Below are positions 8,061 through 64,000 of a DNA stretch of 64,000 nucleotides, in pieces. The number at the start of each line of letters is the position of its first letter. The first letter of the stretch is position 1. Under the pieces are notes generated by a model. The model was not told the origin of the DNA. It searched no databases and worked only from the letters and a program-made list of their open reading frames with translations. The translations under genes and the position numbers were made by a program. This DNA comes from Escherichia phage phiWec188: sequence record LC739537.1. One strand, 5' to 3'.

Positions 8061-8065
8061 TCTGT

Positions 8066-8090: not shown

Positions 8091-8117
8091 TGAGAGTTAA
8101 ATAATAGGAGGAAATAT

Positions 8118-8996: not shown

Positions 8997-8999
8997 GTG

Positions 9000-9030
9000 C
9001 TTGACTTGCAGACTTCATTGTGATACTATG
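9000..9030 (+). promoter_or_regulatory. sigma70-type promoter TTGACT-N17-TACTAT
   Basis: near-consensus -35 and -10 with 17-nt spacer; coordinates approximate. Confidence 0.45.
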
Positions 9031-9058
9031 CCTACCTACTCAACGAGGTAGGCTTTTA
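9030..9058 (+). promoter_or_regulatory. leader hairpin GCCTACCT...AGGTAGGC followed by TTTT (terminator-like, placed downstream of promoter)
   Basis: 8-bp inverted repeat + U-tract between promoter and RBS of 9068 gene. Confidence 0.4.
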
Positions 9059-9067
9059 GGAGGTGTT

Positions 9068-9277
9068 ATGAAAAAGACAATTGTGGCGTTACTGTTGGCA
9101 ACAAGTTTCTCGGCAGCGGCTGGACAAACTACTCTCATTCTTTCGGATGAGGAAGTTAGCGGCAATACTAAATATTGTTTCTATTCCAACTCCATCTACG
9201 ACAAAGTTATCCAGATCTCTGCGAGTCGGCAATGTCCTTACACAAAAACATTCAGTACGGATGATGACGATGAATAA
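9068..9277 (+). CDS. small secreted protein with signal peptide (69 aa)
   Basis: MKKTIVALLLATSFSAAAGQ signal-peptide-like N-terminus; AGGAGG RBS; internal start of ORF 9020..9277. Confidence 0.55.
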   Translation: MKKTIVALLLATSFSAAAGQTTLILSDEEVSGNTKYCFYSNSIYDKVIQISASRQCPYTKTFSTDDDDE

Positions 9278-9321
9278 TAGGGGGAATTATCAGCGGGTAC
9301 ATTTTAATAAAACCGGAAGAT

Positions 9322-10413
9322 TTGCACAAGTATGTTGACCTAAACACTGTTGTGGTTATCGATTATGACCAAGTGGCTTTCCAAGCAGCTTCTGCTGTAG
9401 AGAAGCGTCGTATATTGGCTAAACATGCAGCCTCCGGTTCCGAAAAAGAATTTGACAATAAGACAGAGTTTTGGGGTAAGAGTAAAACTGAAATTGGTGG
9501 TTGGCTTGGAGCATTGAATGCTAAACGAGAAGAGCAGGGTAAACGTCCTTTCACCAAAGAAGAGTTTGAAATTGTCGATGTGCAGTACGTACCAGACACT
9601 TTGTCACATGCTTTTCAAGCAGCTAAAACAAAAGTTCAAGCGATCTTAAAGCATTTAAGTTTAGAAAAATATTGCGGGGTTATTGGTGTAGGGAAAACCT
9701 TCCGACATGATTTTAAGATGCCTACCGAGTATAAATCTGAACGATCTGACATTAAGCCTTTACAACTATCCGATACCAAAGACTACTTGGTAGAGCAACA
9801 CAATGGGGATGTTGTTACGGTTATCGAAGCCGATGATGAATTAGAGAAGTACGGTTTCCAAGGTTACAAAGATTACAAACGCACAGGAAAATTCTCTTAC
9901 ATCCTGGCGTCAATAGATAAAGACAGCCTATCCACTCCAAGCATCCTCTTTAACTTCTACAAAGAAGACGGTGTATTCAAGAATCCAGATATCATCTTGA
10001 TAGACGAGTCCATCGGAGACTTGTGGATTGTTGAAAAGGGCAAGAAAAAAGAGGTGAAGGGTTGGGGATCTTTCTGGTTGGCCTATCAGATGCTGATGGG
10101 AGATAAAACGGATAGCATCCGTCCTTACCAGGATTTTGGTATTAAGTTTGGAGACGTTTCTTGCTTCAACTTGATATCTGAATGCAAGACCCAAGCTGAA
10201 CTTTTCCAGAAAGTGAAAGATACATTTTATACCTGGTTCCCTGAAGGTGTTAAATTTACATCTTGGGATCGGGAAGCAGTAGAATTAACAACCGATCAAT
10301 GGATCGAGACAATATTCCAACTTGTTTACATGAAGCGTTGGGATAACGATAACACAACTTTTGAGAGTATGCTTCAAGCGTACATTTCACAACAGGAGAC
10401 AATTAATGAGTAA
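9322..10413 (+). CDS. 5'-3' exonuclease / flap endonuclease, T4 RNase H-like (363 aa)
   Basis: N-terminal VVIDYDQVAFQAASA, GKTFRHDF and ILASIDKDSL segments parallel T4 RNase H (LIDFSQIAL, SGYWRRDF, ILIISSDGDF); probable TTG start. Confidence 0.6.
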   Translation: MHKYVDLNTVVVIDYDQVAFQAASAVEKRRILAKHAASGSEKEFDNKTEFWGKSKTEIGGWLGALNAKREEQGKRPFTKEEFEIVDVQYVPDTLSHAFQAAKTKVQAILKHLSLEKYCGVIGVGKTFRHDFKMPTEYKSERSDIKPLQLSDTKDYLVEQHNGDVVTVIEADDELEKYGFQGYKDYKRTGKFSYILASIDKDSLSTPSILFNFYKEDGVFKNPDIILIDESIGDLWIVEKGKKKEVKGWGSFWLAYQMLMGDKTDSIRPYQDFGIKFGDVSCFNLISECKTQAELFQKVKDTFYTWFPEGVKFTSWDREAVELTTDQWIETIFQLVYMKRWDNDNTTFESMLQAYISQQETINE

Positions 10414-11371
10414 ATTAACAACAGAGCAGAAAGTAGAAATCATTAGCCTTAAAACACAAGGTCTTTCTTCTCGCCAGATCGCTGCATTAGTTCTCGGTAG
10501 CGCGACAAAGAAAAGTACAGTGAACGATTTCTTGGTTCGTGAAAACTCTGCCAACGCTGGAACTCCTAAAGTTAAACCAGAAGGTCCAGTAGTTAAAATT
10601 ATTGACGTTGAAACAGCACCAGAAATTGCGTATACTTTCCGTCGATTCAAAGCTTTTATCTCTCCTGATCAGGTGATTCGCCGTGGTTACTTGTTGTCCT
10701 ACTCTTCCGCAGATCTGCGTACTGCTGAAGTTGAAGGTAAGAACTTGGCAAGCTACCCTCTGTTCGATATTGATCACACAGACGATTGGGAACTGTGCCA
10801 AGACATTTGGAAGCTTCTGGATGAAGCTGATATCGTTGTAGCTCACAACGGTGTTAAATTTGACCGTGCTTATATTAACCAGCGTTTCGCATACCACGGA
10901 ATGGTTCCTCCATCGAACTATGTTGTGGTCGATACTCTGAAAGCAGCTAAGAAACAATTCTTCTTACCATCTAATTCTCTGAAAGAGATGGGTGCTTACT
11001 TTGAAACAGAGAGCGAAAAACTTGATAACGAAGGGTTCCCGTTGTGGAAGGCTTGTTGTGAAGGTGATCGTGATGCGTTTGAACGTATGCAAACTTACAA
11101 CGATGGTGATGTAGTTTCTCTGCGAGATCTGTACATTAAGATTCTGGCGTGGATTCCGCAACATCCTAACGTATCTGCTTACTACGAAGATACTAAAGTT
11201 CGTTGCTCTCGTTGTGGCAGTGCACATGTGAATGTACTGGCAGATAAGAAGTACCACACAGCAGTAAGTTCTTTTGATATTATTCGTTGTGAAGATTGTG
11301 GTGGACTTTCTCGTGGACGTGTTAACAGCCGTTCCAAAGATAAGATGAAAAATACCATTGTCGGGATTTAA
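10406..11371 (+). CDS. DnaQ-like (DEDD) 3'-5' exonuclease with N-terminal HTH and C-terminal Cys4 element (321 aa)
   Basis: Exo I IIDVETAPE, Exo II VVAHNGVKFD, Exo III YNDGD motifs; CSRCG...CEDCGG zinc-ribbon; AGGAGA RBS, ATGA-type overlap. Confidence 0.55.
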   Translation: MSKLTTEQKVEIISLKTQGLSSRQIAALVLGSATKKSTVNDFLVRENSANAGTPKVKPEGPVVKIIDVETAPEIAYTFRRFKAFISPDQVIRRGYLLSYSSADLRTAEVEGKNLASYPLFDIDHTDDWELCQDIWKLLDEADIVVAHNGVKFDRAYINQRFAYHGMVPPSNYVVVDTLKAAKKQFFLPSNSLKEMGAYFETESEKLDNEGFPLWKACCEGDRDAFERMQTYNDGDVVSLRDLYIKILAWIPQHPNVSAYYEDTKVRCSRCGSAHVNVLADKKYHTAVSSFDIIRCEDCGGLSRGRVNSRSKDKMKNTIVGI

Positions 11372-11373
11372 TA

Positions 11374-11400
11374 AGAAAGGGGCTTCGGCCCCTTTTTTCA
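11374..11400 (+). terminator. rho-independent terminator (GGGGC-TTCG-GCCCC + TTTTTT)
   Basis: perfect 5-bp GC stem, tetraloop, 6-T run right after stop; coordinates approximate. Confidence 0.65.
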
Positions 11401-11407
11401 TTTAAGT

Positions 11408-11438
11408 GTTGACACAGAGAACTAATTGCGATACAATC
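11408..11438 (+). promoter_or_regulatory. sigma70-type promoter TTGACA-N17-TACAAT
   Basis: consensus -35, 17-nt spacer, good -10, about 45 nt upstream of ATG 11481. Confidence 0.5.
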
Positions 11439-11480
11439 TTTATCAACAAGGCATACCGCCTTAAACAAGAGGAGACTATC

Positions 11481-11939
11481 ATGAGTAAGAATATTATTGT
11501 TTTTCGTAACGCTGCTGATTTCCGTAATTATGCCGCAGAATCTGGTCGTAACAATGCAGCCCGTGCTTTGTATCGTCAGTTCTTACGTTTAAATAATCTG
11601 GACCGTAACGAGCTAATCCAGGATTCCTCTGGTTTGACAGTAGGGAAAGATAACCGTCAACAGGTACTTATCGGAGGTTGCCTGTACGGTGTGTCTGTGA
11701 ACGATAAAGGTGATTGCCGTCAGTACGACAGTGACTATGTTGGTCTGATTAATATCTCCCCGACTACGGGCAGAGTTCTACTGGCATTCACTAACGATTT
11801 GTCTTTACACAAGAAACCAAACTTGATCCGCACAAAAGGAAACAATGCATCTTATAACGCTGCTCTTAGCGAAGATGCTTCTGTAGAGCTTGAAAACTTT
11901 AAAATCTGGGATAATACCACTCCAGAACAAAATTACTAA
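11481..11939 (+). CDS. hypothetical protein (152 aa)
   Basis: internal ATG of ORF 11406..11939 preceded by AAGAGGAGA; ORF-track N-terminus would overlap the promoter. Confidence 0.55.
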   Translation: MSKNIIVFRNAADFRNYAAESGRNNAARALYRQFLRLNNLDRNELIQDSSGLTVGKDNRQQVLIGGCLYGVSVNDKGDCRQYDSDYVGLINISPTTGRVLLAFTNDLSLHKKPNLIRTKGNNASYNAALSEDASVELENFKIWDNTTPEQNY

Positions 11940-11948
11940 GGGGGTTGA

Positions 11949-12176
11949 ATGAGCATTACATTAACGGGTAATGAAATTTTTGAATTATTTGAAATGTTAG
12001 GGATGAGTTATTCTATTGACAAAGACCCTGATCTTCTAAATGTGGAGATCACCGTTTTAGAGAATGGTGAACTTCTTGATGATAACGGTAATGTTATGTA
12101 CCGTGGTCGCGTTGCTTATTACACAGACTACCCTGAAGAAGGTGGAGTCGGAATCCAGGAGGAAAATTATGTCTAA
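11949..12176 (+). CDS. hypothetical protein (75 aa)
   Basis: AAGGGGG RBS. Confidence 0.5.
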   Translation: MSITLTGNEIFELFEMLGMSYSIDKDPDLLNVEITVLENGELLDDNGNVMYRGRVAYYTDYPEEGGVGIQEENYV

Positions 12177-12567
12177 TGCATTTAATGATCAAGTTGACGG
12201 ACACCATTACACAGATATGGTAATGCAACCTATAGAGTTGGCTTATCTTGTAGGTGGCACACCTTGTTTCTGCAAGCTTGCTAAATACTCTACTCGTGTC
12301 AAGGGTGATCGCATGATCAACTTGGACAAAGCTATTCATTGCATCGCGCTGGAAGCTACCATGATGGAGAACCATAGTTTCATGGTACAGGAAAACTACC
12401 CAGCAGCCACAAGTAAGGCCAAAACTGATCAAGCCATGTTGCTGATTGACTTCTTCACAAAAGATCCCTTAATCCGCGAAGCTTTGAAGTGTATGTATTG
12501 TTCTTACTACCAAGATGCAATGATCGCTATCCGAAAACTTAAGGAACAAATTAGTAATGGCGAATAA
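12169..12567 (+). CDS. hypothetical protein, DUF3310-like (132 aa)
   Basis: AGGAGGAAAA RBS at internal ATG; GHHY...IELAYL...KYSTRVKG...DLDKA pattern as I recall for DUF3310 phage proteins. Confidence 0.35.
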   Translation: MSNAFNDQVDGHHYTDMVMQPIELAYLVGGTPCFCKLAKYSTRVKGDRMINLDKAIHCIALEATMMENHSFMVQENYPAATSKAKTDQAMLLIDFFTKDPLIREALKCMYCSYYQDAMIAIRKLKEQISNGE

Positions 12568-12748
12568 CACAAAACAGTACGGGGAAGGTGAGGTTTATAA
12601 AATTTATAACCGTAAAGGGGATAAGCTTTTAGTAACTATCACCATTCCAGAAAATATGTGCAAGGCAGGTTTGGATCGCCTGTTGTTCTTTAAACACAAT
12701 ATTCCACCTGGTGAATACACAATCAAGAAGGTGCCAATTGTCAAGTAA
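12557..12748 (+). CDS. hypothetical protein (63 aa)
   Basis: co-directional ORF with overlap to previous stop; weak RBS. Confidence 0.4.
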   Translation: MANNTKQYGEGEVYKIYNRKGDKLLVTITIPENMCKAGLDRLLFFKHNIPPGEYTIKKVPIVK

Positions 12749-12761
12749 AGAACCTAAAGTA

Positions 12762-13316
12762 ATGTGGGGCGAAGGAACGCCCTGGAAAACCCAATCGGAG
12801 TTCTATACATATTTACGGGGATGTTTACGTCAAGCATGGATGCGACACCCAAACAAAATCAAAGTTCTTCAAGCTAAACGTTACAAAGTTGACCGCCTTG
12901 ACAAAGACGGAAATGTGATGTTAGATAAGAAGACGGGTAAACCAAAACAAGTTTGGAACTGCAAATGTGAACTTTGTGGACATACAGGAGGAATGAAAGA
13001 CTTCCAGGTTGACCACATTCATGCAGCTAAAGCCTTGCAATGTTTTCAGGATATTCCTGACTTTGTTTTGCGTTTGATTTATGTCAAAGAAGAAGATTTG
13101 CGTATGGTTTGTAAGCTTTGCAACTCTATCTTAGCCTATGCAGATAAGCAGGGCATCTCCTTCGAGGCAGCAGCCGTTGAGAAGGAAGCTATTGCGATCT
13201 GTCAAGCGAAGAAAGATAAGAAGTGGTTGGAGTCCAAAGGTGTGACACCTGAATCCACAGCAGCAAAACGACGCAAACAAATAGTCCAAATCTTATTGAC
13301 CGAAAGAGGTCTTTGA
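12762..13316 (+). CDS. putative HNH-type endonuclease (184 aa)
   Basis: CELCGHTGG...FQVDHIH...CKLCN pattern resembles HNH motif (Cys pairs flanking DH); start uncertain. Confidence 0.35.
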   Translation: MWGEGTPWKTQSEFYTYLRGCLRQAWMRHPNKIKVLQAKRYKVDRLDKDGNVMLDKKTGKPKQVWNCKCELCGHTGGMKDFQVDHIHAAKALQCFQDIPDFVLRLIYVKEEDLRMVCKLCNSILAYADKQGISFEAAAVEKEAIAICQAKKDKKWLESKGVTPESTAAKRRKQIVQILLTERGL

Positions 13317-13347
13317 GGTACTATGAAATAACTGGAGAGGAGGGATT

Positions 13348-13965
13348 ATGAAGATAGTTTGTGATTGGGATCTGGTGGTTGCTCCACTGGATGTTGCTTG
13401 GCTGGAATGGTTGGTTAAAGTTAGCGGAGATTGTGTAGGCTTCTGCGGAGCTGTCAAAAATGTTGACTACGATCTTACTAAATACTTCCCAGGTTTCCGT
13501 GAGAAGTTTAACATCGATCCTTACGGCTTTCTGGATAATTCCCATCTCTACGATACAATGGGATGTATCAAACCTATGGCTAACTTCTTAGAAGGTGTTG
13601 TGAAAGAGGGAGATAATGCACTTATTGCAAGTGTGACTAAAGGTGGACACCTTAGCTCAAAACACAAACATGTTTTAAGAACTTTGCCAACCATCGATTT
13701 TGGTAAAGGTTCTGGTAATGGTTTCTTTGCCACAAAAGAAAAATACCTGTTGCCTTGTGATATTGCCATAGATGACAGGGCAGAAAACCTGTTGTATTTT
13801 CCAGACCATGTTGTTAAGATTTACTACAATACGATGTATAAAGATTTGTATTTGGAAGAATTAAAAAAGAAACCAAATGTAGTTGTCACAGGTTTGTACA
13901 ATCAAGCAGAAACCTGTTGGCAAGTTTATTCAATGTTAAAAGAACGAGGAGAAATTAATGTCTAA
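13348..13965 (+). CDS. HAD-superfamily 5'(3')-deoxyribonucleotidase-like protein (205 aa)
   Basis: N-terminal VCDWDLVV (HAD motif I DxDxV) and C-terminal AIDDR (motif IV); GGAGAGGAGGG RBS. Confidence 0.4.
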   Translation: MKIVCDWDLVVAPLDVAWLEWLVKVSGDCVGFCGAVKNVDYDLTKYFPGFREKFNIDPYGFLDNSHLYDTMGCIKPMANFLEGVVKEGDNALIASVTKGGHLSSKHKHVLRTLPTIDFGKGSGNGFFATKEKYLLPCDIAIDDRAENLLYFPDHVVKIYYNTMYKDLYLEELKKKPNVVVTGLYNQAETCWQVYSMLKERGEINV

Positions 13966-14953
13966 TATCAGTGCACAAGTCATCGCCCAGTCTATGAACG
14001 CAGAAGGGCAAGTGATTACAACTTTCGAACTGGAATACCCACGTATCATCCATTCTGAGTTGATGACGCACCGCTTATTCTCCCGCAACGCGGCTTCAAG
14101 CCGTGCTATTCCGGTGAAGACCCTGATTGAAATGGTTCGCAAAGAACCTGCTGCACCTGTTCGTTTTGGTCAACACCAACCTGGGATGCAGGATCAAGGC
14201 GTAGAATATGATGCTCTTATTGGGGCAGGTTACTCAGGTCGTGAGTGGTGGAATTTAGCTGCGCTTAGTGCAGCAAACTTTGCAGAACAAATGGCGGAAG
14301 CTGGTTACGCGAAGCAGGTTTGTAATCGCCTTCTTGAACCATTCCAGAGAATGAAGACGGTTCTGACAGCAACCGAGTATGAAAACTTCTGGTGGCTACG
14401 TGATGACGCTGATGCTGATCCGACTATTGAAGCTTTAGCTAAAGTTATGTTTGAAGCTTATGAAGCCTCTACTCCAGAACTGCTGGCTCCAGGACAATGG
14501 CATACGCCTTACGTAGATCACGTCTACGAGAACATCGGTCTGGAAGGTGATGATGTTTTGGTATTCGCTGGGTATAGCACTACAGATGAAAATGGTGATA
14601 CTGTCATGCTGTCGCTGGAAGAAGCACTTGCAATCTCTTCTTCTTGTTGCGCACAAGTGAGCTATCGTCGTCTGAATGCAACTAAAGATAAAGCTTTGGA
14701 TATCTACGGACGTTTGCTTACTGGTCGTAAAGTCCACGCTTCTCCGTTTGAACATCAAGCTACACCTATGCAAGCAACCTTGGAACTTCTTGGTGAGAAT
14801 TCGTCTGAAGATATTCTTATTAACGTTCCGTGGTATGCAGCTTCTTGGGAAGTAGGTATTACTCACAGCGATCGTAACGAAAAACTGTGGTCTGGAAATT
14901 TCAAAGGATTTATCCAGCACCGTCAGCTTTTAAATAATCATACTAAATGGTGA
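13958..14953 (+). CDS. thyX: FAD-dependent thymidylate synthase ThyX-like (331 aa)
   Basis: ThyX-type signature segment HSELMTHRLFSRNAASSRAIP (RHR...S..R-like) near N-terminus; size appropriate; located in nucleotide-metabolism cluster. Confidence 0.7.
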   Translation: MSNISAQVIAQSMNAEGQVITTFELEYPRIIHSELMTHRLFSRNAASSRAIPVKTLIEMVRKEPAAPVRFGQHQPGMQDQGVEYDALIGAGYSGREWWNLAALSAANFAEQMAEAGYAKQVCNRLLEPFQRMKTVLTATEYENFWWLRDDADADPTIEALAKVMFEAYEASTPELLAPGQWHTPYVDHVYENIGLEGDDVLVFAGYSTTDENGDTVMLSLEEALAISSSCCAQVSYRRLNATKDKALDIYGRLLTGRKVHASPFEHQATPMQATLELLGENSSEDILINVPWYAASWEVGITHSDRNEKLWSGNFKGFIQHRQLLNNHTKW

Positions 14954-14967
14954 TTCGAGTAAATTCT

Positions 14968-15000
14968 TATTGACTTTAGTATGAGATTTAGTGTAGTATA
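14968..15000 (+). promoter_or_regulatory. sigma70-type promoter TTGACT-N18-TAGTAT
   Basis: -35/-10 hexamers; coordinates approximate. Confidence 0.4.
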
Positions 15001-15009
15001 GCAAAACGT

Positions 15010-15034
15010 TGGGGGAGGTGAGATTCCCCCTTTA
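15010..15034 (+). promoter_or_regulatory. leader hairpin GGGGGA...TCCCCC followed by TTT
   Basis: 6-bp GC stem located between promoter and RBS of 15050 gene. Confidence 0.4.
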
Positions 15035-15049
15035 CAAAAGGAGAAAATT

Positions 15050-15460
15050 ATGTCATTAGTAAACACTACCACTTGGGCTACCGTGAGCATGTCTACCGTT
15101 AAGTCTACCCCAATCTGGAAGCAAGAGTCAGAAAAATACCGTGGTCATATTCCTCACGATCGTCACGCAGATGTACTTCGTGCCGCTCTGGTGTTCCTTG
15201 GTATGAACGAAGATGGCAACTTCTCTGTTGAGCGTAATGTTAACATTCGTAGTAACAACGACAACAGTTTGGTTTATATCAACACAACTCTTTATACTTT
15301 TGCTGTTAAAGAAAGCTGTCCTTTCAAACATATCTACCAAAAGAATGATATTTTTCATTATGGTGCTGAAGAATTTGGCGGTTGGGGTGTGACTCACACA
15401 AAAATGGACGATTTCGGTAATTCCTACGATCCTGCAAGAGCAGAAGACAATTCACTTTAA
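15050..15460 (+). CDS. hypothetical protein (136 aa)
   Basis: AAAGGAGAAAA RBS. Confidence 0.55.
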   Translation: MSLVNTTTWATVSMSTVKSTPIWKQESEKYRGHIPHDRHADVLRAALVFLGMNEDGNFSVERNVNIRSNNDNSLVYINTTLYTFAVKESCPFKHIYQKNDIFHYGAEEFGGWGVTHTKMDDFGNSYDPARAEDNSL

Positions 15461-15470
15461 GAGAGGGATA

Positions 15471-15716: not shown

Positions 15717-15730
15717 GATAGGGAGGAGAA

Positions 15731-32219: not shown

Positions 32220-32246
32220 TAACCCGCTTCGGCGGGTTTTTTATTG
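32220..32246 (+). terminator. rho-independent terminator (ACCCGC-TTCG-GCGGGT + TTTTTATT)
   Basis: perfect stem, tetraloop, T-run. Confidence 0.65.
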
Positions 32247-32253
32247 TGTGAGT

Positions 32254-32284
32254 GTTGACAAGACACGAAGAACCTGGTAGACTT
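32254..32284 (+). promoter_or_regulatory. candidate promoter TTGACA-N17-TAGACT
   Basis: consensus -35 just after terminator, weaker -10. Confidence 0.35.
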
Positions 32285-34332: not shown

Positions 34333-34997
34333 TGACCCATTTAAAACCTTTTGGTGGAAAACCTATTGTGGCGTATCAAGTAGATCGTGATGATTGGGAA
34401 GGCAGTGTAGTTGTCTTTGGTAATCATTTCTTTGCTGTGCGTCGTAAAGGCGCAAGTATGTTGGATTGTGAGGAGGAGTATTGTCATGTCTCCCGCGCCA
34501 AAGAATTCGACCAGTATGCAGAAAAAGGTTTTGTGCCTGTCAAAGCTTTACTGGAGGCAGGATGGTGGATACACTCTGCTCATGATGGTGTTAGACTTGA
34601 CGAGTCTGTAGATAATCTTGAGGCAGATTTTGACGAATGGGAAGATGGCATGTATATTGAGGAGGATCTTGTATTTTCCCTTGACGAGAAAAGTGTGTGG
34701 AAGAACTGGGAAGAAATGGAACGTCACGCGCATTTTATCAACAACGCTTTGATTCGTAAAGCCTGGTTCACAGAGGCGGTGAAGGTAGCGTATCCGCAAT
34801 TCACCTTTACGGAGGTTTGGGGCGGTCCACACCACATCACCCATACAGCATTTTTCGACTTCCCTGGTTCACGTTACAAAGGTAATGTAATGTGGGACTG
34901 GGATGAGAATGAAGTACCATCTGTTCAAGACTTTCGTTGTTATGTTTGCCAAGGCGATCAAGAAGCCCTTGACAAATACCTGCAAAGTCTGGTATAG
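34329..34997 (+). CDS. hypothetical protein (222 aa)
   Basis: AAGGAGGAATG RBS, ATGA overlap. Confidence 0.5.
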   Translation: MMTHLKPFGGKPIVAYQVDRDDWEGSVVVFGNHFFAVRRKGASMLDCEEEYCHVSRAKEFDQYAEKGFVPVKALLEAGWWIHSAHDGVRLDESVDNLEADFDEWEDGMYIEEDLVFSLDEKSVWKNWEEMERHAHFINNALIRKAWFTEAVKVAYPQFTFTEVWGGPHHITHTAFFDFPGSRYKGNVMWDWDENEVPSVQDFRCYVCQGDQEALDKYLQSLV

Positions 34998-35011
34998 TGC
35001 AAGCAACTGAA

Positions 35012-35041
35012 CAAAGCCTCCTTTTCAGGGGGCTTTTCTTT
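35012..35041 (+). terminator. rho-independent terminator (AGCCTCC...GGGGGCT + TTTCTTTT)
   Basis: stem-loop + T-tract after stop. Confidence 0.5.
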
Positions 35042-35055
35042 TATGAGGAGGGAAT

Positions 35056-36977: not shown

Positions 36978-37000
36978 GAAAAAACCCGCCGAAGCGGGTT
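36978..37000 (-). terminator. minus-strand hairpin AACCCGC-TTCG-GCGGGTT + TTTTTT (terminator-like, downstream of candidate promoter at about 37020-37048)
   Basis: hairpin + U6 on minus strand between genes 37045..37329 and 36724..36954; preceded on minus strand by TTGACA-N17-GATACT. Confidence 0.45.
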
Positions 37001-37044
37001 CATGTGCTGCGGTAGGATCAGTATCCTACAACAAGAATTGTTTG

Positions 37045-37329
37045 TCAACGTTTAGAGTAGAAAAACTCCTCGTATTCTGATCGTGTGACTATTGCTGGGC
37101 GACCTTTAGTGCCGAAGAAGTTTGCGCTTGGGCCTTGTGCCATACCTTTATTGAACAAGCAGTAATCCCCACGCATATAAATCCCAGAGAATGTTTCAAC
37201 AACATCGTATTTGCCAACGCTGGAGAACTTAATTTCTCCATCTGCATCTCGAACTGCGATCACAGCTTGTTCAGGCCATTCTTCGTTGAGAGCTTTAAGA
37301 CCGTTGTAAACTTCTTGTACGAGTTCCAT
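37045..37329 (-). CDS. hypothetical protein (94 aa)
   Basis: AAGGAGG RBS. Confidence 0.5.
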   Translation of the reverse strand: MELVQEVYNGLKALNEEWPEQAVIAVRDADGEIKFSSVGKYDVVETFSGIYMRGDYCLFNKGMAQGPSANFFGTKGRPAIVTRSEYEEFFYSKR

Positions 37330-42278: not shown

Positions 42279-42339
42279 TTTATGCTCCTCTCGTTCAACA
42301 TGCACAAACAATAACACCCTCCGAAGAGGGTGTCAATGA

Positions 42340-59441: not shown

Positions 59442-59810
59442 TTACTTTGTGCGGTTGTAAACGTTATCGCGTTCAACCATCAAGGCAAGGCGGATCAGTT
59501 GATCAGTTGTATCGCGTAAGCTGTCAGGCCATGTTTTATTGTTCCAGCTATCTAAATTTGATTGAATATAGGTTTCAATGGCTTGATCCATATTGTCGAA
59601 CAAGTTTGCCTCCAGGCTCTCGGCTGTTTCACACTGGAAAGCATCAGCGACACTATTAATCAATAAGCAAGCCAGTAGATCAGCGTTGCGCCAATTTTTA
59701 CGGATAGTTTCATCTTTCAGATAACCAACGAGATCAACCTTTGCGCCAGTGGTGGACGTTGCGATCACTTCTTGCGCTTTTTCAACTGCTTTAATTGCTG
59801 ATTTGCTCAT
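59442..59810 (-). CDS. hypothetical protein (122 aa)
   Basis: AAGAGGAAAAGAAG RBS. Confidence 0.55.
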   Translation of the reverse strand: MSKSAIKAVEKAQEVIATSTTGAKVDLVGYLKDETIRKNWRNADLLACLLINSVADAFQCETAESLEANLFDNMDQAIETYIQSNLDSWNNKTWPDSLRDTTDQLIRLALMVERDNVYNRTK

Positions 59811-59825
59811 CTTCTTTTCCTCTTT

Positions 59826-59890
59826 GTGGGCTTGCTGTATTGCTCGCCCTACGCAATAACTATAAGTTAACAGGGTGTATAAAGCAAGCT
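59826..59890 (-). promoter_or_regulatory. promoter-leader cassette (TTGCTT-N17-TATAGT, then ...CGTAGGGCGAGC hairpin)
   Basis: member of repeated cassette family; coordinates approximate. Confidence 0.35.
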
Positions 59891-60122
59891 ATTTTTTATA
59901 AAATTTTTCTGCTGTGATATTCTTCCCTGTAGGCTTAACCGCTTGCAAGATCTTATCATGCGCCGGACGTCCAAAGGAATAAGATCCATAAACGGTAAAC
60001 CAATAATCCCCGTCAGGTTGAACGGTTACGGCGGCGTAGGGTGTACCTCTCTCATTATCACCGATAAAGTGTGAAACATTGCCGTTAACGTTCGATTTAG
60101 TGCTTTTAATTTGTCCGATCAT
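59889..60122 (-). CDS. hypothetical protein (77 aa)
   Basis: weak RBS; own promoter cassette upstream. Confidence 0.5.
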   Translation of the reverse strand: MIGQIKSTKSNVNGNVSHFIGDNERGTPYAAVTVQPDGDYWFTVYGSYSFGRPAHDKILQAVKPTGKNITAEKFYKK

Positions 60123-60139
60123 GGTGTTATTCCTATATT

Positions 60140-60202
60140 AGACGGGAAACATTCCCGCCCTACGTGATAAATAATAATATAAGCGTGATCCGGTGTCAAT
60201 AG
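60140..60202 (-). promoter_or_regulatory. promoter-leader cassette (TTGACA-N17-TATTAT, CACGTAGGGCGGGAA-TGT-TTCCCG hairpin)
   Basis: conserved GATCCGGTGTCAATAG upstream element and CCCTACGTGATAAAT leader on + strand. Confidence 0.45.
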
Positions 60203-60373
60203 GTAGAATTGTAAAGATTTGATAGTTTATCTCTTTGATGTTTTGTTGTTTGATAGGTGTTAGCTATCAATATATAGCGGGGTCGTCCGGTGATTACCTC
60301 CCCCGTTGCCAGTGCCGCCCGTTCAATAAGCATAACAAAAAACAGGACAAAAACAAGCCCTGTTTTGTAAAGA

Positions 60374-60577
60374 TTAGATGATCTGCATATCCTCCACGAT
60401 AATTTCTAATTTCCAAACAAGATGATCTAAGCTCCCTGATAAAAATGATTCCGATACATAACCGCCATCGGACACCGTAGCAAGGATCTCGCCATTTGCT
60501 TGCTCTTTGATTTGAACATCCAGGCGGTTAGCCTTTGCTTTATTCAGGACGGCGATCAGGCGGTTAGCTGTAGTCAT
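60374..60577 (-). CDS. hypothetical protein (67 aa)
   Basis: GGAAGGAAAAACACC RBS at internal ATG. Confidence 0.5.
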   Translation of the reverse strand: MTTANRLIAVLNKAKANRLDVQIKEQANGEILATVSDGGYVSESFLSGSLDHLVWKLEIIVEDMQII

Positions 60578-60597
60578 GGTGTTTTTCCTTCCAGTTG

Positions 60598-60660
60598 TGA
60601 GCGGCACCATTGCCGCCCTACGAAATACATCTTACACTATCCGGCACATCATGCAAGCTA
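60598..60660 (-). promoter_or_regulatory. promoter-leader cassette (TTGCAT-N16-TAAGAT, CGTAGGGCGGCA-ATGG-TGCCGC hairpin)
   Basis: member of repeated cassette family. Confidence 0.4.
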
Positions 60661-60662
60661 TT

Positions 60663-60854
60663 TTATACTTCGTCACCTATATAATCAGATCTGTTCTTCT
60701 CTGTCATACGCTTAAGCAATTCCTGCATATGGCTTATAGCTTGCAATGTGTCTTCTTCCAGGCTTGAATCCACATAATCAGGATCATTCTTTACCTTGCT
60801 ATGGTTGTGATAACGCAACGCTGCTAATACCTTTCTAACTTGTTCTGCATTCAT
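60663..60854 (-). CDS. hypothetical protein (63 aa)
   Basis: TAAGGAGTAATAAAA RBS. Confidence 0.5.
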   Translation of the reverse strand: MNAEQVRKVLAALRYHNHSKVKNDPDYVDSSLEEDTLQAISHMQELLKRMTEKNRSDYIGDEV

Positions 60855-60866
60855 TTTTATTACTCC

Positions 60867-61001
60867 TTAAAACCAGGTGCCAACCGTTTCCAATAGGTCA
60901 CTGACTACCAGAACAACACCGATTAGCACATATTTAACCAGGAAGGGGATTAGCGCCAGCGTTGCTACTATGATCCCCATTGTCATGATTACCTTTCTCA
61001 T
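60867..61001 (-). CDS. small membrane ORF (44 aa)
   Basis: ATG overlaps stop of upstream gene (ATGA); two hydrophobic segments. Confidence 0.35.
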   Translation of the reverse strand: MRKVIMTMGIIVATLALIPFLVKYVLIGVVLVVSDLLETVGTWF

Positions 61002-61288
61002 TGTTGGCGGTTTACGTAAGCTTTACCGTTTACGGTCATCGGTATGGCCTCAAGGTCTGGATCTTCCTTAAGGTCGCGTGCAAGCTCACCGCACCGGACA
61101 CCCTCGAATCCGTGGTATTCTGTTTCCCCGTCCTTAAAAGTTTTAGCGGCAAGGCATAGGCGATAATTAACCCCGATCCGGTTTACTGCGTTGATATCGG
61201 TTAACGTGATCGATTCAGGCAAATCGTTAGCCATTACAGGCGCGTTAATACCAACAACCAGGGCAACTACTGCGATCATCTTTTTCAT
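60998..61288 (-). CDS. secreted protein with signal peptide (96 aa)
   Basis: MKKMIAVVALVVGINAPVMA|ND signal peptide; GGAAGAGGATAG RBS. Confidence 0.55.
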   Translation of the reverse strand: MKKMIAVVALVVGINAPVMANDLPESITLTDINAVNRIGVNYRLCLAAKTFKDGETEYHGFEGVRCGELARDLKEDPDLEAIPMTVNGKAYVNRQQ

Positions 61289-61339
61289 GTTGTCTATCCT
61301 CTTCCTATTGCGTTTAATGGGGCGTTGCCGCCCCGCTGA

Positions 61340-61564
61340 TTAATTACGTTGGCTGTTTTCTACTATCGACTTTAAAATAAAGTCAGTTACGCCCTTTGTG
61401 TCATCCGGCGGGAAGTTATCAGCATAGCACCAGGCATAAGCGCCATCAACTGGAAGCGGGAAGATATGCACGCTTAGATCCCCATAATCATATTCAGTTA
61501 TTTCTACCTTGAGATCCGACAATTCAGCCAGTTTAATAGCTTGTAACATTCTAACAATACTCAT
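61340..61564 (-). CDS. hypothetical protein (74 aa)
   Basis: AGAAAGGAAAAG RBS; GGGCGGCAACGCCCC hairpin in 5' leader. Confidence 0.5.
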   Translation of the reverse strand: MSIVRMLQAIKLAELSDLKVEITEYDYGDLSVHIFPLPVDGAYAWCYADNFPPDDTKGVTDFILKSIVENSQRN

Positions 61565-61603
61565 AATCTTTTCCTTTCTGATAGTGGGGCGTTGCCGCCC
61601 TTT

Positions 61604-61849
61604 TTAGAATTGACGCGTTACGCGATCGGTGTTTTCTTCCTTTACAACCTTACCTGTTGCTACCATTTCGCTGATTTTTTCATCGTTGATAATGTTGTTA
61701 TTCTCTTTGATCCAGGTCCAACGATTACCCATCAAAGTATTCCCTTTTAACGCATAATACCAAATGTTGTTAGGCATTTTGATCCAAGCCATACCGCGCG
61801 AATTTTTCGGGTCGTGGTAGATATTGCCAATTTTAGTTGTCTGGTACAT
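61604..61849 (-). CDS. hypothetical protein (81 aa)
   Basis: AAAGGTAAAACATC RBS. Confidence 0.5.
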   Translation of the reverse strand: MYQTTKIGNIYHDPKNSRGMAWIKMPNNIWYYALKGNTLMGNRWTWIKENNNIINDEKISEMVATGKVVKEENTDRVTRQF

Positions 61850-61869
61850 GATGTTTTACCTTTTTCCAG

Positions 61870-61932
61870 GAAGCGGGAACTATTCCCGCCCTACGTGGTA
61901 AATATTATCATATTGACGATCCGTGTCAATAG
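61870..61932 (-). promoter_or_regulatory. promoter-leader cassette (TTGACA-N16-TAATAT, CACGTAGGGCGGGAA-TAG-TTCCCGC hairpin)
   Basis: conserved GATCCGTGTCAATAG and CCCTACGTGGTAAATATTATCA elements. Confidence 0.45.
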
Positions 61933-61949
61933 TTTTTTGGAGTTTTTAC

Positions 61950-62351
61950 TTACAGGCCCAAGATAGCCCGTGCATCGTTACGCTGTTTAGTCTCAGTCAT
62001 GATCATATTTAAAATGGTCGGATTAATATAACCTTTCTCCATAGCTTCGCGGACTGGTACATCATAAGCACCGAAACCAGTGCGAACGATACGCACATCA
62101 TTCAGATTAGTGTTATAGATCCCGCCTAAATCAACCGACTGGAAAACGGCATCAACACTATATTCAGTGTTGCCATCGTTGACGTTTTCGATCTCAATGT
62201 TGCGAGACACCGCCCAACGTTTACAGCCTCCAATCAGGTAGCATTGTTCCTTTGTCAGATTACCATTGGAAACCGCATATTTCAGGGCTTCAGCGCCGAA
62301 AGTTTTAGCAATGTTAACAACGTCAGTATAAGAAAGGATCGTAATGTTCAT
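61950..62351 (-). CDS. hypothetical protein (133 aa)
   Basis: GGAG RBS; own promoter cassette. Confidence 0.55.
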   Translation of the reverse strand: MNITILSYTDVVNIAKTFGAEALKYAVSNGNLTKEQCYLIGGCKRWAVSRNIEIENVNDGNTEYSVDAVFQSVDLGGIYNTNLNDVRIVRTGFGAYDVPVREAMEKGYINPTILNMIMTETKQRNDARAILGL

Positions 62352-62369
62352 GGTTATAACTCCAAATGG

Positions 62370-62435
62370 TGAGCGGCACCATTGCCGCCCTACGTGGTAA
62401 ATATTATCACACTGGTGATCTGTGTCAATACTATT
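62370..62435 (-). promoter_or_regulatory. promoter-leader cassette (TTGACA-N16-TAATAT with TG extension, CACGTAGGGCGGCA-ATGG-TGCCGC hairpin)
   Basis: near-identical to cassette at 61.9 kb. Confidence 0.45.
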
Positions 62436-62453
62436 TATTCAATATAAATAAAA

Positions 62454-62669
62454 TTATGATGTGCGCTCAATTATGATAATGGTCTGTGGGATCTCGTTTT
62501 CTGCCACTATCAGGGCTTTTTTCTGCGTGATAGTTATTTTAACACGTTGCAACGATGCGGTAAAGTCTTTCATTTCGTTATGTGCGGACTTGCTGCAATG
62601 CCAGATCTCAGGCTTACCAACTTGTAAGCCGCGTAAAAATTCCGTTTTGCCTGCTTTGTTCGTGAACAT
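62454..62669 (-). CDS. hypothetical protein (71 aa)
   Basis: AAGGTGAAACAA RBS at ATG. Confidence 0.45.
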   Translation of the reverse strand: MFTNKAGKTEFLRGLQVGKPEIWHCSKSAHNEMKDFTASLQRVKITITQKKALIVAENEIPQTIIIIERTS

Positions 62670-62679
62670 TTGTTTCACC

Positions 62680-62784
62680 TTAACCGATACCGTGAGAAGA
62701 TAGGATCATATTAGCCATAGTTGCAACCACTCCAACCGATAACGCCAGGCCAACTATTGCAACCGTGAAAATTTTCTCTAACAT
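62680..62784 (-). CDS. small membrane peptide (34 aa)
   Basis: AAAGAGGGTAGCATC RBS; single TM helix; ORF-track N-terminal extension would overlap promoter cassette. Confidence 0.3.
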   Translation of the reverse strand: MLEKIFTVAIVGLALSVGVVATMANMILSSHGIG

Positions 62785-62867
62785 GATGCTACCCTCTTTA
62801 ATGGGCGTTGCCTTATTGCCCCGCCCTACGTGATACACTTTACCAGAAAACAAAATACTGTCAAGAT

Positions 62868-63005
62868 TTATTTTACTTCCCAAACGGAAAATTCACTACC
62901 TGGCGGGATCATTCTTTTAATCTTGTTTGCTGCTGCTACCAGGTCCACGGCTTGCACTGTAATAATATAACCAATTGTCGAGGCTGTTGCATTGAAAGTT
63001 TTCAT
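62868..63005 (-). CDS. small ORF (45 aa)
   Basis: GGTGAGGGTAATATA RBS; own cassette upstream. Confidence 0.35.
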   Translation of the reverse strand: MKTFNATASTIGYIITVQAVDLVAAANKIKRMIPPGSEFSVWEVK

Positions 63006-63021
63006 TATATTACCCTCACCA

Positions 63022-63075
63022 TCGGCGGCACCATTGCCGCCCTACAAGATGAATACTACGCGCTTACTTTGCTGT
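63022..63075 (-). promoter_or_regulatory. promoter-leader cassette (TTGACA-N17-TAGTAT, TTGTAGGGCGGCA-ATGG-TGCCGCC hairpin)
   Basis: member of repeated cassette family. Confidence 0.4.
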
Positions 63076-63246
63076 TGTCAACAAGGGGCGAAAAAACTTT
63101 TTGATCTGGCTTGCTGTTAGGCGCATATCTGCTTTGAGCGTTGCCAGGCGATAAGCCTTACCCTTAATCAGTTTATGGTGTCCGGTGCCGTTGCCGATGA
63201 TAACATCAATTTCACACAATACACGGGAAGAATCAATCTTTTTCAT
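63064..63246 (-). CDS. hypothetical protein (60 aa)
   Basis: AGAAAGGTAACAAG RBS; GGGGCGACAAGCGCCCC hairpin in leader. Confidence 0.4.
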   Translation of the reverse strand: MKKIDSSRVLCEIDVIIGNGTGHHKLIKGKAYRLATLKADMRLTASQIKKFFRPLLTTAK

Positions 63247-63294
63247 CTTGTTACCTTTCTTGTTATGGGGCGCTTGTCGCCCCTGGTTTATGGT

Positions 63295-63480
63295 TTATTT
63301 GACTATGTGACGATCATTATATTCAGTGTAAAACTCGCAACCATCGTCACGACTATCAAGTTTAACAATGTAACCAGTTTGATAACGTTCAATAGATACC
63401 ATTGCATAAAACTTACCATTCAGGATATTTCTAACCAGATCGCCTTTTACCAATTCTTTCGTTTTCTTGTAAGTAGTCAT
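63295..63480 (-). CDS. hypothetical protein (61 aa)
   Basis: internal ATG; cassette upstream. Confidence 0.45.
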   Translation of the reverse strand: MTTYKKTKELVKGDLVRNILNGKFYAMVSIERYQTGYIVKLDSRDDGCEFYTEYNDRHIVK

Positions 63481-63497
63481 GATGTTTTCTCTTCTGT

Positions 63498-63560
63498 TAG
63501 GCGGGGCGCTTGTCGCCCCTATGTGATACATCTTATCAGGTTGATTCAGCTTGTCAAACT
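63498..63560 (-). promoter_or_regulatory. promoter-leader cassette (TTGACA-N16-TAAGAT, CACATAGGGGCGACAAGCGCCCC hairpin)
   Basis: member of repeated cassette family. Confidence 0.4.
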
Positions 63561-63738
63561 ATTTGTTAGCCGGATTATATGCCAGGACCGCGCCACTTGC
63601 TTTCACGCTTTCCGCTTCATAGTTGCGCAGATCGTTTTCTGTAAGATTGAGCGCGATCACTTCCTCGATCTCAATACCAGTGGCAAGGGCGATCTCTTTA
63701 ATGATGTTTGATGATCTGATAACGTTTACTGTTTTCAT
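63559..63738 (-). CDS. hypothetical protein (59 aa)
   Basis: AAGGTG RBS at internal ATG. Confidence 0.45.
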   Translation of the reverse strand: MKTVNVIRSSNIIKEIALATGIEIEEVIALNLTENDLRNYEAESVKASGAVLAYNPANK

Positions 63739-63748
63739 GGTGTGCACC

Positions 63749-63868
63749 TTATAAGATGATTGATAAGATAGTGATAACGAAAGCGATAACACCAACGGCG
63801 ATCGTAGTCTTACGCCCTTCGGATACTGCCGGATTCTCTACCGTGTATTCTACTGTGTATTTGTTCAT
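63749..63868 (-). CDS. small membrane ORF (39 aa)
   Basis: GAGGATAACACA RBS; C-terminal TM helix. Confidence 0.35.
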   Translation of the reverse strand: MNKYTVEYTVENPAVSEGRKTTIAVGVIAFVITILSIIL

Positions 63869-63884
63869 TGTGTTATCCTCTCGC

Positions 63885-63945
63885 TTGCTTTGGGAACTAT
63901 TCCCGCCGCCCTATGAATTAAATATACACTATCTCAAAATGATTG
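63885..63945 (-). promoter_or_regulatory. promoter-leader cassette (TTGCAA-N16-TATATT, CATAGGGCGGCGGGAA-TAG-TTCCC hairpin)
   Basis: member of repeated cassette family at window end. Confidence 0.35.
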
Positions 63946-64000
63946 CAAACCTTTTTCTAAATTATTTTTATGCAGTAAATAAACCATCGTTTACAACGGC

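Follow-up and report, generated by a model that had tools for sequence, protein, structure and literature searches.

Composite promoter/stem-loop cassettes as probable stop-and-restart elements between genes of an Escherichia phage

Three intergenic sites of Escherichia phage phiWec188 have a sigma-70-like promoter that is followed by a hairpin ahead of the ribosome-binding site (RBS) of the next gene. In the window, that is, the whole 64-kb stretch of DNA analysed (genus Phapecoctavirus, subfamily Stephanstirmvirinae; 87 kb of the genome lie outside it), the sequences reported for sites 1 to 3 by the first-pass annotation were recovered in the order promoter, hairpin, RBS, and the order terminator then promoter that it gave for 11.38 kb and 32.22 kb was correct. 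Its proposal for all three sites, attenuation or antitermination or else a 5'-end stabilizer, is a fair reading of site 3 as attenuation, fits site 2 as 5' stabilization and does not fit site 1; the three sites are three different things. What probably unites them with further examples in the window is that they are composite promoter/stem-loop intergenic cassettes working like the promoter-early stem-loops (PeSLs) of T4-like phages. The first job of the stem-loop would be to stop or thin transcription coming from the upstream gene, and a host sigma-70 promoter packed against it would restart transcription for the next gene, with an effect of the hairpin on the promoter's own RNA that varies with the register between the two.

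A generic scan for sigma-70-like promoters returned no excess over shuffled sequence (47 vs 43, 41 vs 40 and 58 vs 44), so that promoter hexamers by themselves prove nothing, and a generic terminator scan listed only site 3 among the three sites. Support above chance comes from functional promoter positions that are kept in relatives while the spacers have diverged, from stems with compensatory changes, and from hairpin enrichment. Nine of the 21 intergenic promoters whose -35 matches 5/6 positions or better carry a hairpin of -11 kcal/mol or lower in the leader, compared with 3.5% of 600 random 50-mers drawn from the window (binomial probability ~2e-8). Leader lengths at these promoters are bimodal, with ten leaders of 23-35 nt without a hairpin and nine of 39-66 nt carrying one of -11 kcal/mol or lower; the two intermediate leaders follow promoter 59376 (46 nt, no hairpin) and promoter 11409 (44 nt, -5 kcal/mol). 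The cassette promoters match the consensus at 9-11 of the 12 hexamer positions and are of near-consensus sigma-70 type, and all transcription start sites (TSSs) given here are predicted, at the usual 7-9 nt after the -10. Phylogenetic footprints argue that the promoters of site 1, site 2, site 3 (within Phapecoctavirus) and a site at 35 kb (across two genera) are real, as compensatory double changes in the stems do for the hairpins of sites 1 and 2.

At site 1, on the plus strand after rdgC, the promoter TTGACT-N17-TG-a-TACTAT, with an extended -10 TG, occupies positions 9001..9029 (TTGACT at 9001-9006, TACTAT at 9024-9029) and begins 5 nt past the rdgC stop codon. The hairpin GCCTACCT-loop-AGGTAGGC with its TTTT tail fills 9030..9057 (stem-loop 9030-9053) and is followed by AGGAGG and an ATG at 9068. 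Across an alignment of ten homologues, TTGAC, TG, TA..AT and the opening GCC of the hairpin stay invariant, whereas the spacer diverges, a footprint that holds down to 42% RdgC identity. No nucleotide separates the -10 from the hairpin in 16/16 homologous loci, a pyrimidine-A step is found at positions 8-9, and the stem covaries through double compensatory changes at pairs 4-6 (8 variants). Positions 9026-9062 fold at -14.4 kcal/mol (z -3.74; hairpin alone, -12.7), and the homologous hairpin of phage Schickermooser is annotated as an ARNold terminator. The U-tract is borderline, with four T then A here and TTTTT or TTTTTATT in relatives, and with just four U the hairpin may be a weak terminator. 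The predicted TSS (9036-9038) coincides with the end of the hairpin 5' arm or the first loop base, and an RNA begun at 9037 is without significant structure (-3.7 kcal/mol, z +0.39). Provided that the usual 7-9 nt spacing applies, the promoter's own RNA could not form the terminator, since it would start at the end of the 5' arm; lacking that arm, the new transcript would escape termination, and the hairpin would be no leader element of its own promoter but a terminator acting solely on read-through arriving from rdgC. The earlier reading of site 1 as a hairpin within a leader is contradicted by this geometry. Site 1 would represent an unusually clean natural example of a terminator blind to its own promoter purely by register, with a fixed register and a covarying stem even among relatives in which the flanking protein is down to 42% identity, and it could serve synthetic biology as a compact 71-bp stop-and-restart insulator part. 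A long shot is that the invariant abutment of -10 and hairpin makes a termination-reinitiation device, which would hand polymerase released at the hairpin directly back to the overlapping promoter.

Site 2 (14970-15030, plus strand) lies between thyX and a gene for a 136-aa protein. The hexamers of its promoter, TTGACT-N18-TAGTAT (14970..14999), are kept in nine homologues, down to ~37-43% identity of the downstream protein. The hairpin (15011..15030; -13.0 kcal/mol) has a purine-rich 5' arm and a CCUCC-like 3' arm, starts ~5 nt past the predicted TSS (A15006, inside a conserved ACGTT), leaving 4-6 unpaired 5' nucleotides, and is followed by TTTAC and an ATG at 15050. Its stem varies among relatives with pairing always kept (GGGGGA/TCCCCC, GGGAGGA/TCCTCCC, AGGAGAGC/GCTCTCCT, GAGAGGGAA/TTCCCTCTC). 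None of the nine homologues has a U-tract: one to four T are found among the 8 nt that follow their stems, and site 2 itself has only three. Judged by its sequence, the element is a 5'-leader hairpin, and of the two options raised earlier for this site, that of a 5'-stabilizing hairpin fits and that of a terminator does not (1-4 T per 8 nt).

Nine repeated cassettes in the early region (59810..63960, minus strand), recognized from repeats and folds, have a sigma-70-like promoter, 6-7 nt, an (AC)GTAGGGCGG-type hairpin, a Shine-Dalgarno sequence (SD) and an ATG. This unit of promoter and ACGTAGGGCGG-hairpin is repeated with motif starts at 59852, 60163, 60621, 61894, 62393, 62829, 63045, 63522 and 63914, and GTAGGGCG has seven exact matches in the cassettes, all on the minus strand, and no other exact match in the window. 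The cassettes form repeat families of 21-62 nt, and their hairpins (-8 to -15 kcal/mol) are without U-tracts. The boundaries of homology blocks shared with tuntematon and TSP7_1 fall at the cassettes, in one case inside GTAGGGC; the cassettes bound mosaic breakpoints and flank small ORFans. These nine cases at 59.8-63.9 kb, like a fourth site at 34969-35044, are additional to those of the first-pass annotation.

At site 2 and in the nine early cassettes, a hairpin 2-6 nt past the start and without a U-tract would ride at the 5' end of the mRNA, where its most likely effect would be to impede the 5'-end-dependent decay that RppH and RNase E carry out, in the manner of an ompA-type 5' stem-loop. 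A 5'-terminal stabilizing stem-loop was reportedly described by Emory, Bouvet and Belasco in 1992 in the leader of E. coli ompA, and the hairpins considered here resemble it in being stable, a few nucleotides from the predicted 5' end and upstream of the SD. The 4-6 unpaired 5' nucleotides of site 2 lie at the upper bound for protection in ompA, the effect here being proposed by analogy, and protection from RNase E may be partial, given 4-6 unpaired nucleotides at site 2 and 8-12 at site 3 and the 35-kb site. Site 2 and the early cassettes share a conserved ACGTWGGG start, a hint of sequence-specific recognition that a PeSL-like model leaves unexplained.

Site 3 (37048-36979, minus strand) has a promoter directly past the upstream stop codon, TTGACA-N17-GATACT (37020..37048, TTGACA from 37048), of which TTGACA and GATAnT at N17 are kept in nieznany, dw-ec and anhysbys with the spacer rewritten. 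The promoter is absent from Justusliebigvirus relatives, where the same terminator comes immediately after the stop codon. An inverted repeat, GTAGGAT-ACTG-ATCCTAC (37012..37029, minus strand), overlaps the -10 and is present only in RNA from upstream; in relatives its outer pair changes from G-C to A-T (ATAGGAT...ATCCTAT). The canonical intrinsic terminator AACCCGC-TTCG-GCGGGTT with its T6 run (36979..37001, hairpin at 37000-36983; found by the terminator scan; -13.1 kcal/mol, z -2.52) starts ~13 nt past the predicted TSS (A37013), the run ending at 36979 ahead of an ATG at 36954, and is identical in all relatives, promoter-less ones included. RNA reading through from upstream folds into two hairpins (-24.6 kcal/mol, z -5.09). 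At the 35-kb site (34969-35044, plus strand), the promoter TTGACA-N18-TG-g-TATAGT (34969..34998; 11/12 match with TG) overlaps the final codons and stop of the upstream gene, and seven sequences from two genera show no substitutions in the hexamers or TG and 3-4 in the spacer, wobble positions being unchanged within the hexamers and changed within the spacer. A canonical terminator, AAAGCCTCC-loop-GGGGGCTTT followed by TCTTTT (35013..35044; terminator scan; -14.4 kcal/mol), starts ~8 nt past the predicted TSS and extends into the RBS; in Justusliebigvirus the stem differs in sequence with pairing kept (AAAGCCCC/GGGGCTTT).

At these two sites, canonical terminators lie wholly within the predicted leader, and self-attenuation is plausible at these sites only. 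With a full terminator and U-tract spanning roughly +8 to +40, some of the promoter's own transcripts would end as ~37-nt RNAs, and the remaining RNA would read through with a 5' hairpin, amounting to a constitutive attenuation that damps a strong promoter. Counting against this picture, a strong promoter would seem squandered on an efficient terminator if nothing regulates the pair. A classical attenuator or riboswitch leader, in which an alternative antiterminator pairing, a leader peptide or a ligand-binding domain precedes the terminator, was rejected for the terminator-bearing leaders, which have only 8-13 nt before the terminator, single-hairpin folds and no Rfam match at E<=1.

Regulated antitermination, in which a Q-, N- or P7-like phage factor or a cis put-like leader RNA would make the terminators switches delaying expression, is unlikely. 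It would suit the canonical terminators at 35.0 and 37.0 kb, which fall inside the predicted leaders of conserved promoters close to consensus, the conserved ACGTWGGG-hairpin leader common to site 2 and the early cassettes, and the six hairpin terminators of the 36-kb plus-strand block that have no promoter before the next gene (for instance, AGGGGCTTCGGCCCCT+TTTTT between nrdA and the nrdB group), so that read-through is needed there anyway; however, leaky terminators account equally well for such read-through. Moreover, site 1 is predicted to evade its terminator by geometry, the hairpins of site 2 and of the early cassettes appear not to be terminators, no leader motif is common to sites 1-3 and the 35-kb site, and a -10-like pause element was not seen when the initial transcribed regions were read. 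The systems for comparison are the HK022 put RNA and lambda pR'-tR'. Promoter then terminator before the genes served is an order shared with lambda, but there the terminator is ~190 nt downstream and antitermination depends on the Q protein together with a Q-binding element and a sigma-dependent pause, none of which was found here. The Rfam search, which gave no matches even at E<=1, detected no put-like RNA. Following the earlier suggestion of a phage antiterminator elsewhere in the genome, no Q-, N-, Psu- or NusG-type family was found among the Pfam families listed for 154 window proteins, where 13 plus-strand families fall outside the listing, ORFans make up most of the early proteins and the window stops short of another 87 kb of genome. 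A long shot is that an undescribed mechanism of this phage subfamily renders the host RNA polymerase resistant to termination, with the 35.0-kb, 37.0-kb and six promoter-less terminators being read through and the ACGUWGGG-hairpin of early transcripts acting as a cis put-like signal or factor loading site.

That the hairpins are ordinary terminators of upstream genes beside chance promoter-like hexamers, leaving the downstream genes to be transcribed by read-through only, is improbable. Promoter-like sites are indeed no commoner than in shuffled sequence, the -10 of site 3 (GATACT) is weak, its whole promoter is missing in Justusliebigvirus with the terminator kept, and the 35-kb promoter lies partly in coding sequence. 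Yet the hexamers and extended -10 TG are invariant, with diverged, non-coding spacers, at loci with 42-66% protein identity, the spacing is held at 17-18, and at 35 kb wobble positions are fixed in the hexamers and changing in the spacer. The phylogenetic footprint of the promoters likewise contradicts the alternative set out in the first-pass annotation, that of ordinary terminators with mispredicted promoters. We give similarly little credence to the inverted repeats acting mainly as DNA, as phage-repressor operators or recombination hotspots, rather than as RNA hairpins. The palindrome overlapping the site 3 -10, the conservation of the GTAGGGCGG motif beyond pairing at +1 to +25, where repressors act, and phage homology breakpoints at or inside cassettes would all be in keeping with a role in DNA. 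The stems of sites 1 and 2, however, change freely with pairing kept, including G-U wobble, which fits RNA and not a protein-binding site, and the coding strand is the only one on which U-tracts come after the stems, with loops varying in length.

The favored reading, that of PeSL-like cassettes, has experimental precedent. PeSLs, known from the T4-like phages RB49/phi1, PST/T4 and nt-1/KVP40 (Arbiol et al. 2010, PMC2839356; Comeau et al. 2014, PMC4122927), consist of a strong sigma-70 promoter and a stem-loop that takes one of five registers, among them just downstream of the -10, and both promoter and terminator activities have been demonstrated by lacZ fusions (PMC2839356). The cassettes described here are likewise built from a near-consensus sigma-70 promoter and a G/C-rich stem-loop, which would terminate upstream transcription and sits next to the promoter or overlaps it, in the gap that separates the upstream stop codon from the SD of the next gene. 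Of the PeSL registers, the window has a hairpin within the spacer at 42.3 kb, one that abuts the -10 at 9.0 kb, one overlapping the -10 (the 37.0-kb palindrome) and hairpins upstream of the -35 at 11.4 and 32.2 kb. In the 42.3-kb composite (42308..42336, minus strand; folds and scans), the hairpin GACACCCTC-TTCG-GAGGGTGTT sits within the spacer that separates the TTGACA -35 from the TATTGT -10, the T-rich tail of the terminator doubles as the -10, and the 61-nt intergenic region folds at -24.1 kcal/mol (z -4.77). The conventional order is represented on the plus strand by GGGGCTTCGGCCCC + T6 followed by TTGACA-N17-TACAAT (11376..11437) and by AACCCGCTTCGGCGGGTT + T followed by TTGACA-N17-TAGACT (32221..32283), the latter with the same hairpin sequence as site 3. 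By prediction, the stem-loop lies outside the promoter's own transcript at site 1 and at 42.3 kb, as in PeSL registers, whereas in most of the cassettes (sites 2 and 3, the 35-kb site and the nine early units) it lies past the predicted start, in the promoter's own RNA, unlike in the five PeSL subclasses. The early cassettes also resemble PeSLs in being repeated, next to small ORFans and at mosaic breakpoints, the bounding of breakpoints being confined to them. Apart from the different phage subfamily, sites 1-3 depart from PeSLs in being single-copy, syntenic across genera and located in a replication/nucleotide-metabolism block rather than a hyperplastic region; not being repeated mobile cassettes in such a region, they would work like PeSLs without fitting the full definition.

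ONT-cappable-seq of six Pseudomonas phages revealed terminators right after promoters, with 42 termination sites in 5' UTRs, and the phiKZ terminator T102 terminates >90% (Putzeys et al. 2024, PMC10914365). Site 3 and the 35-kb site are predicted to behave like these 5'-UTR terminators, giving a short RNA and a read-through fraction, although the Pseudomonas ends are mapped and yield RNAs of ~70-250 nt (PMC10914365), compared with only ~37 nt predicted here. Such space-saving packing of promoter and hairpin is known from T4-like phages and is not a new kind of regulation; the present cases would extend composite promoter/terminator cassettes, so far from those phages, to the phi92/phAPEC8 subfamily. 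They bear on the annotation of therapeutic coliphages, where terminator predictors otherwise imply silenced downstream genes, and the two true promoter-proximal terminators, together with the repeated ACGTAGGGCGG leader, offer specific, cheap targets for transcript-end mapping.

The observation made in the first-pass annotation, that three promoters in the window are immediately followed by a hairpin ahead of the ribosome-binding site (RBS), is confirmed and extended by our analysis; the sequences quoted for the three sites read exactly as written, and the order of terminator then promoter reported at 11.38 and 32.22 kb is correct. Generic scans for promoters and for terminators were uninformative: neither showed enrichment relative to shuffled sequence, sigma-70-like promoter matches being no more common than expected from it, and the site 3 hairpin is the only one at sites 1-3 to pass the terminator criteria, so that the case for these sites rests on comparative evidence. 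For site 1 (9001-9057, plus strand), located downstream of rdgC, 16 homologous loci were collected from GenBank relatives and from IMG/VR contigs retrieved with an RdgC alignment as the query, which was needed because an IMG/VR protein search with a single RdgC sequence yielded only one near-identical contig; the RdgC identity in the most distant locus is 42%. The order of elements is the same at all 16 loci, namely, the stop codon, TTGAC(T/A), a 17-nt spacer, TG-n-TAnnAT, the hairpin, 3-5 T, and the RBS, and the hairpin invariably opens with GCC at the base right after the -10 element. In an alignment of 10 sequences, TTGAC, TG, positions 1, 2, 5, and 6 of the -10 element, and GCC are invariant and the spacer is variable, a pattern that, judging by sequence, identifies an extended -10 sigma-70 promoter. 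Double compensatory substitutions affect stem pairs 4 (T-A/C-G), 5 (A-T/T-A/C-G), and 6 (C-G/T-A), counted from the stem base after separate folding of each variant because MAFFT misaligned the 3' arms of hairpins differing in loop length. The annotation of phage Schickermooser lists the homologue of this hairpin as an ARNold terminator (-13.9).

Transcription from sigma-70 promoters usually starts 7-9 nt past the -10 element. From this geometry, we infer that the site 1 start lies at 9036-9038, that is, at the final bases of the 5' arm or the opening base of the loop; a pyrimidine-A step at positions 8-9 is kept in every variant. RNA folded from 9037 is not significantly structured (-3.7 kcal/mol, z +0.39), and read-through RNA forms the complete hairpin (-14.4 kcal/mol, z -3.74). 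Because the predicted start falls within the hairpin and the RNA from 9037 is unstructured, the hairpin lies outside the leader of its own promoter. Given the predicted start, the terminator of site 1 overlaps its promoter and is thus blind to it: the hairpin would stop only transcripts reading through from rdgC, and transcription would restart from the promoter inside the hairpin.

Site 2 (14970-15030, plus strand), between thyX and the gene for a 136-aa protein, has a different character. The promoter hexamers are kept in nine homologues, and the stem pairing is maintained while the sequence differs (GGGGGA/TCCCCC, GGGAGGA/TCCTCCC, AGGAGAGC/GCTCTCCT, and GAGAGGGAA/TTCCCTCTC), with only 1-4 T in the 8 nt past the stem in every homologue. 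Conserved pairing combined with the paucity of T implies a conserved leader hairpin rather than a terminator, and the three T found in phiWec190 are incidental. If the start is taken 7 nt past the -10 element, the RNA begins with ACGUU and has 2-5 unpaired nucleotides ahead of the stem; for this predicted start, the hairpin of site 2 is at the 5' end of the RNA and non-terminating.

Site 3 (37048-36979, minus strand) and a fourth site, missed in the first pass, at 35 kb (34969-35044, plus strand) each consist of a promoter followed by a canonical terminator. Three other Phapecoctavirus genomes retain the site 3 hexamers TTGACA and GATA(C/G)T and their 17-nt spacing, with the spacer sequence itself rewritten. 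In Justusliebigvirus, the same terminator directly follows the stop codon and lacks the promoter, indicating that the terminator is ancestral and the promoter lineage-specific. The 35-kb promoter (34969-34998), an 11/12 match with an extended -10 element, lies partly in the final codons of the upstream gene and is followed by the terminator at 35013-35044; seven sequences from two genera show substitutions in the spacer and none in the hexamers or TG, and a protein-based IMG/VR search for the 35-kb gene recovered two phi92-like loci only. In both cases, the entire terminator lies 8-13 nt past the predicted start, and therefore RNA made from these promoters should often end at about 37 nt; given these starts, both are true promoter-proximal terminators. 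A 7-bp inverted repeat, GTAGGAT-ACTG-ATCCTAC (37012-37029, minus strand), overlaps the -10 element of site 3 and shows a compensatory change of the outer pair in relatives. Among transcripts, only read-through RNA contains it, and this RNA forms two hairpins (z -5.09); the repeat could serve as an operator or as the second hairpin of the read-through RNA.

The first-pass annotation had proposed attenuation or antitermination-dependent expression, or a 5'-stabilizing structure, for all three sites, an interpretation that is partly supported. Attenuation can reasonably be proposed for site 3 and the 35-kb site, and for these two places only; it does not fit site 1, where the hairpin is outside the leader of its own promoter, or site 2, which has no conserved U-tract. 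That regulated antitermination governs the promoter-proximal terminators appears unlikely. The phage antiterminator search suggested earlier returned no Rfam match in the window, whether gathering thresholds were applied or the cutoff was relaxed to E<=1. None of the Pfam families listed for the 154 window proteins is of the Q, N, Psu, or NusG-like type, in a set in which 13 families are not displayed and most early proteins are ORFans, with 87 kb of the genome lying outside the window. Pairing of the leader CCGC with GCGG as an alternative antiterminator of site 3 was rejected because it spans only 4 bp; RNase III sites were likewise rejected, the stems being only 6-10 bp long. Six further plus-strand hairpin terminators (8070-8095, 17978-17998, 24497-24515, 26513-26535, 27955-27985, and 36346-36370), one of them between nrdA and the nrdB group, have an RBS 3-15 nt downstream and lack an intervening promoter. 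Read-through of terminators is thus routine in this genome, and the genes downstream of these six must depend on it. Terminator sequences also recur: AACCCGCTTCGGCGGGTT is found at two unrelated loci on opposite strands (32221-32238, plus; 36983-37000, minus) and in a relative (L009, about 6262-6285), and GGGGCTTCGGCCCC at 11380 and 17979.

A survey of intergenic promoters on the coding strand, limited to -35 matches of 5/6 or better, yielded 21 cases. Ten have leaders of 23-35 nt without a hairpin. In nine, the leader is 39-66 nt long and contains a hairpin of -11 kcal/mol or stronger, a strength reached by 3.5% of 600 random 50-mers from the window (binomial about 2e-8); the remaining two are intermediate (59376, 46-nt leader, no hairpin; 11409, 44-nt leader, -5 kcal/mol hairpin). 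T-tracts follow only three of the nine strong hairpins. A composite at 42.3 kb, with the hairpin between -35 and -10 (42308..42336, minus strand), occurs in close relatives only and hence offers no covariation information.

Nine repeated cassettes occupy 59810-63960 on the minus strand, each comprising a promoter and, 6-7 nt further on, an (AC)GTAGGGCGG-type hairpin, followed by an SD sequence and ATG. These promoter and ACGTAGGGCGG hairpin units flank small ORFans and share the ACGTWGGG start with site 2; the window contains seven exact matches to GTAGGGCG, every one of them within this region (59.8-63.9 kb) and on the minus strand. Homology blocks between phiWec190 and tuntematon and TSP7_1 begin or end at the cassettes, with one break inside the GTAGGGC motif, and pieces of the cassette region also have matches, several per genome, in rV5-like and jumbo PBECO4-like phages. 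In T4-like phages, promoter-early stem-loops (PeSLs) combine an intergenic strong sigma-70 promoter with a stem-loop terminating upstream transcription, located between -35 and -10, over either box, upstream of -35, or just past -10; lacZ fusions demonstrated both activities, and the copies recombine with one another, shuffling ORFans (Arbiol et al. 2010, PMC2839356; Comeau et al. 2014, PMC4122927). In six Pseudomonas phages, 42 termination sites were mapped in 5' UTRs directly past promoters, some terminating >90% of transcripts (Putzeys et al. 2024, PMC10914365). By analogy, the elements in the window would work like PeSLs and these 5'-UTR terminators. The early cassettes show the PeSL traits open to sequence testing; sites 1-3 are single-copy, syntenic, and embedded in the replication block. 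In most cassettes of the window, the hairpin lies past the predicted start, a register outside the five published ones. The cassette region looks, from its sequence, like PeSL-type modular shuffling outside T4-like phages. Literature searches on Phapecoctavirus transcriptomics, phAPEC8 promoters, and the GTAGGGCGG motif found nothing relevant.

Over the stretches queried, the window is 100% identical to the phiWec190 record LC739539.1 (Stephanstirmvirinae, Phapecoctavirus). Placing 154 annotated genes from this record on the window delineates a plus-strand block (664 to 36654) for nucleotide and DNA metabolism (RdgC, exonuclease, ThyX, NrdAB, and dTDP-sugar enzymes) and a minus-strand block (36724 to the window end) dominated by tiny ORFans, which are early genes. 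The former includes, at 20295-23570, a complete dTDP-rhamnose-type pathway (RffG, glucose-1-phosphate thymidylyltransferase, and RfbC and RfbD homologues) inside the replication genes. The minus-strand genes (36.7-63.5 kb) encode one early protein matching the Resolvase N-terminal domain (E 1.7e-16) and several paralogous ORFan families (phrog_2510, nine members; phrog_6418, seven). The point where the two ends of the linear LC739539.1 record meet falls inside the window, at about 42830-42840; the first 148 nt of the record recur at its end and are single-copy in the window. At about 27346-27352, the window has C5 and the record C6, a homopolymer length difference or sequencing error that cuts the annotated gene 26973-27482 to an ORF ending at 27362. 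OR584014.1, labeled Pseudomonas phage PsgM04F, is 94-97% identical to window positions 8000-16000 and 42000-42700, and its host label may be worth checking. No tRNAs were found in the window. A 1.58-kb AT-rich stretch (57302-58882), devoid of annotated genes, tRNAs, and Rfam matches, separates the early cassettes from the remaining minus-strand block and could be an origin or packaging region.
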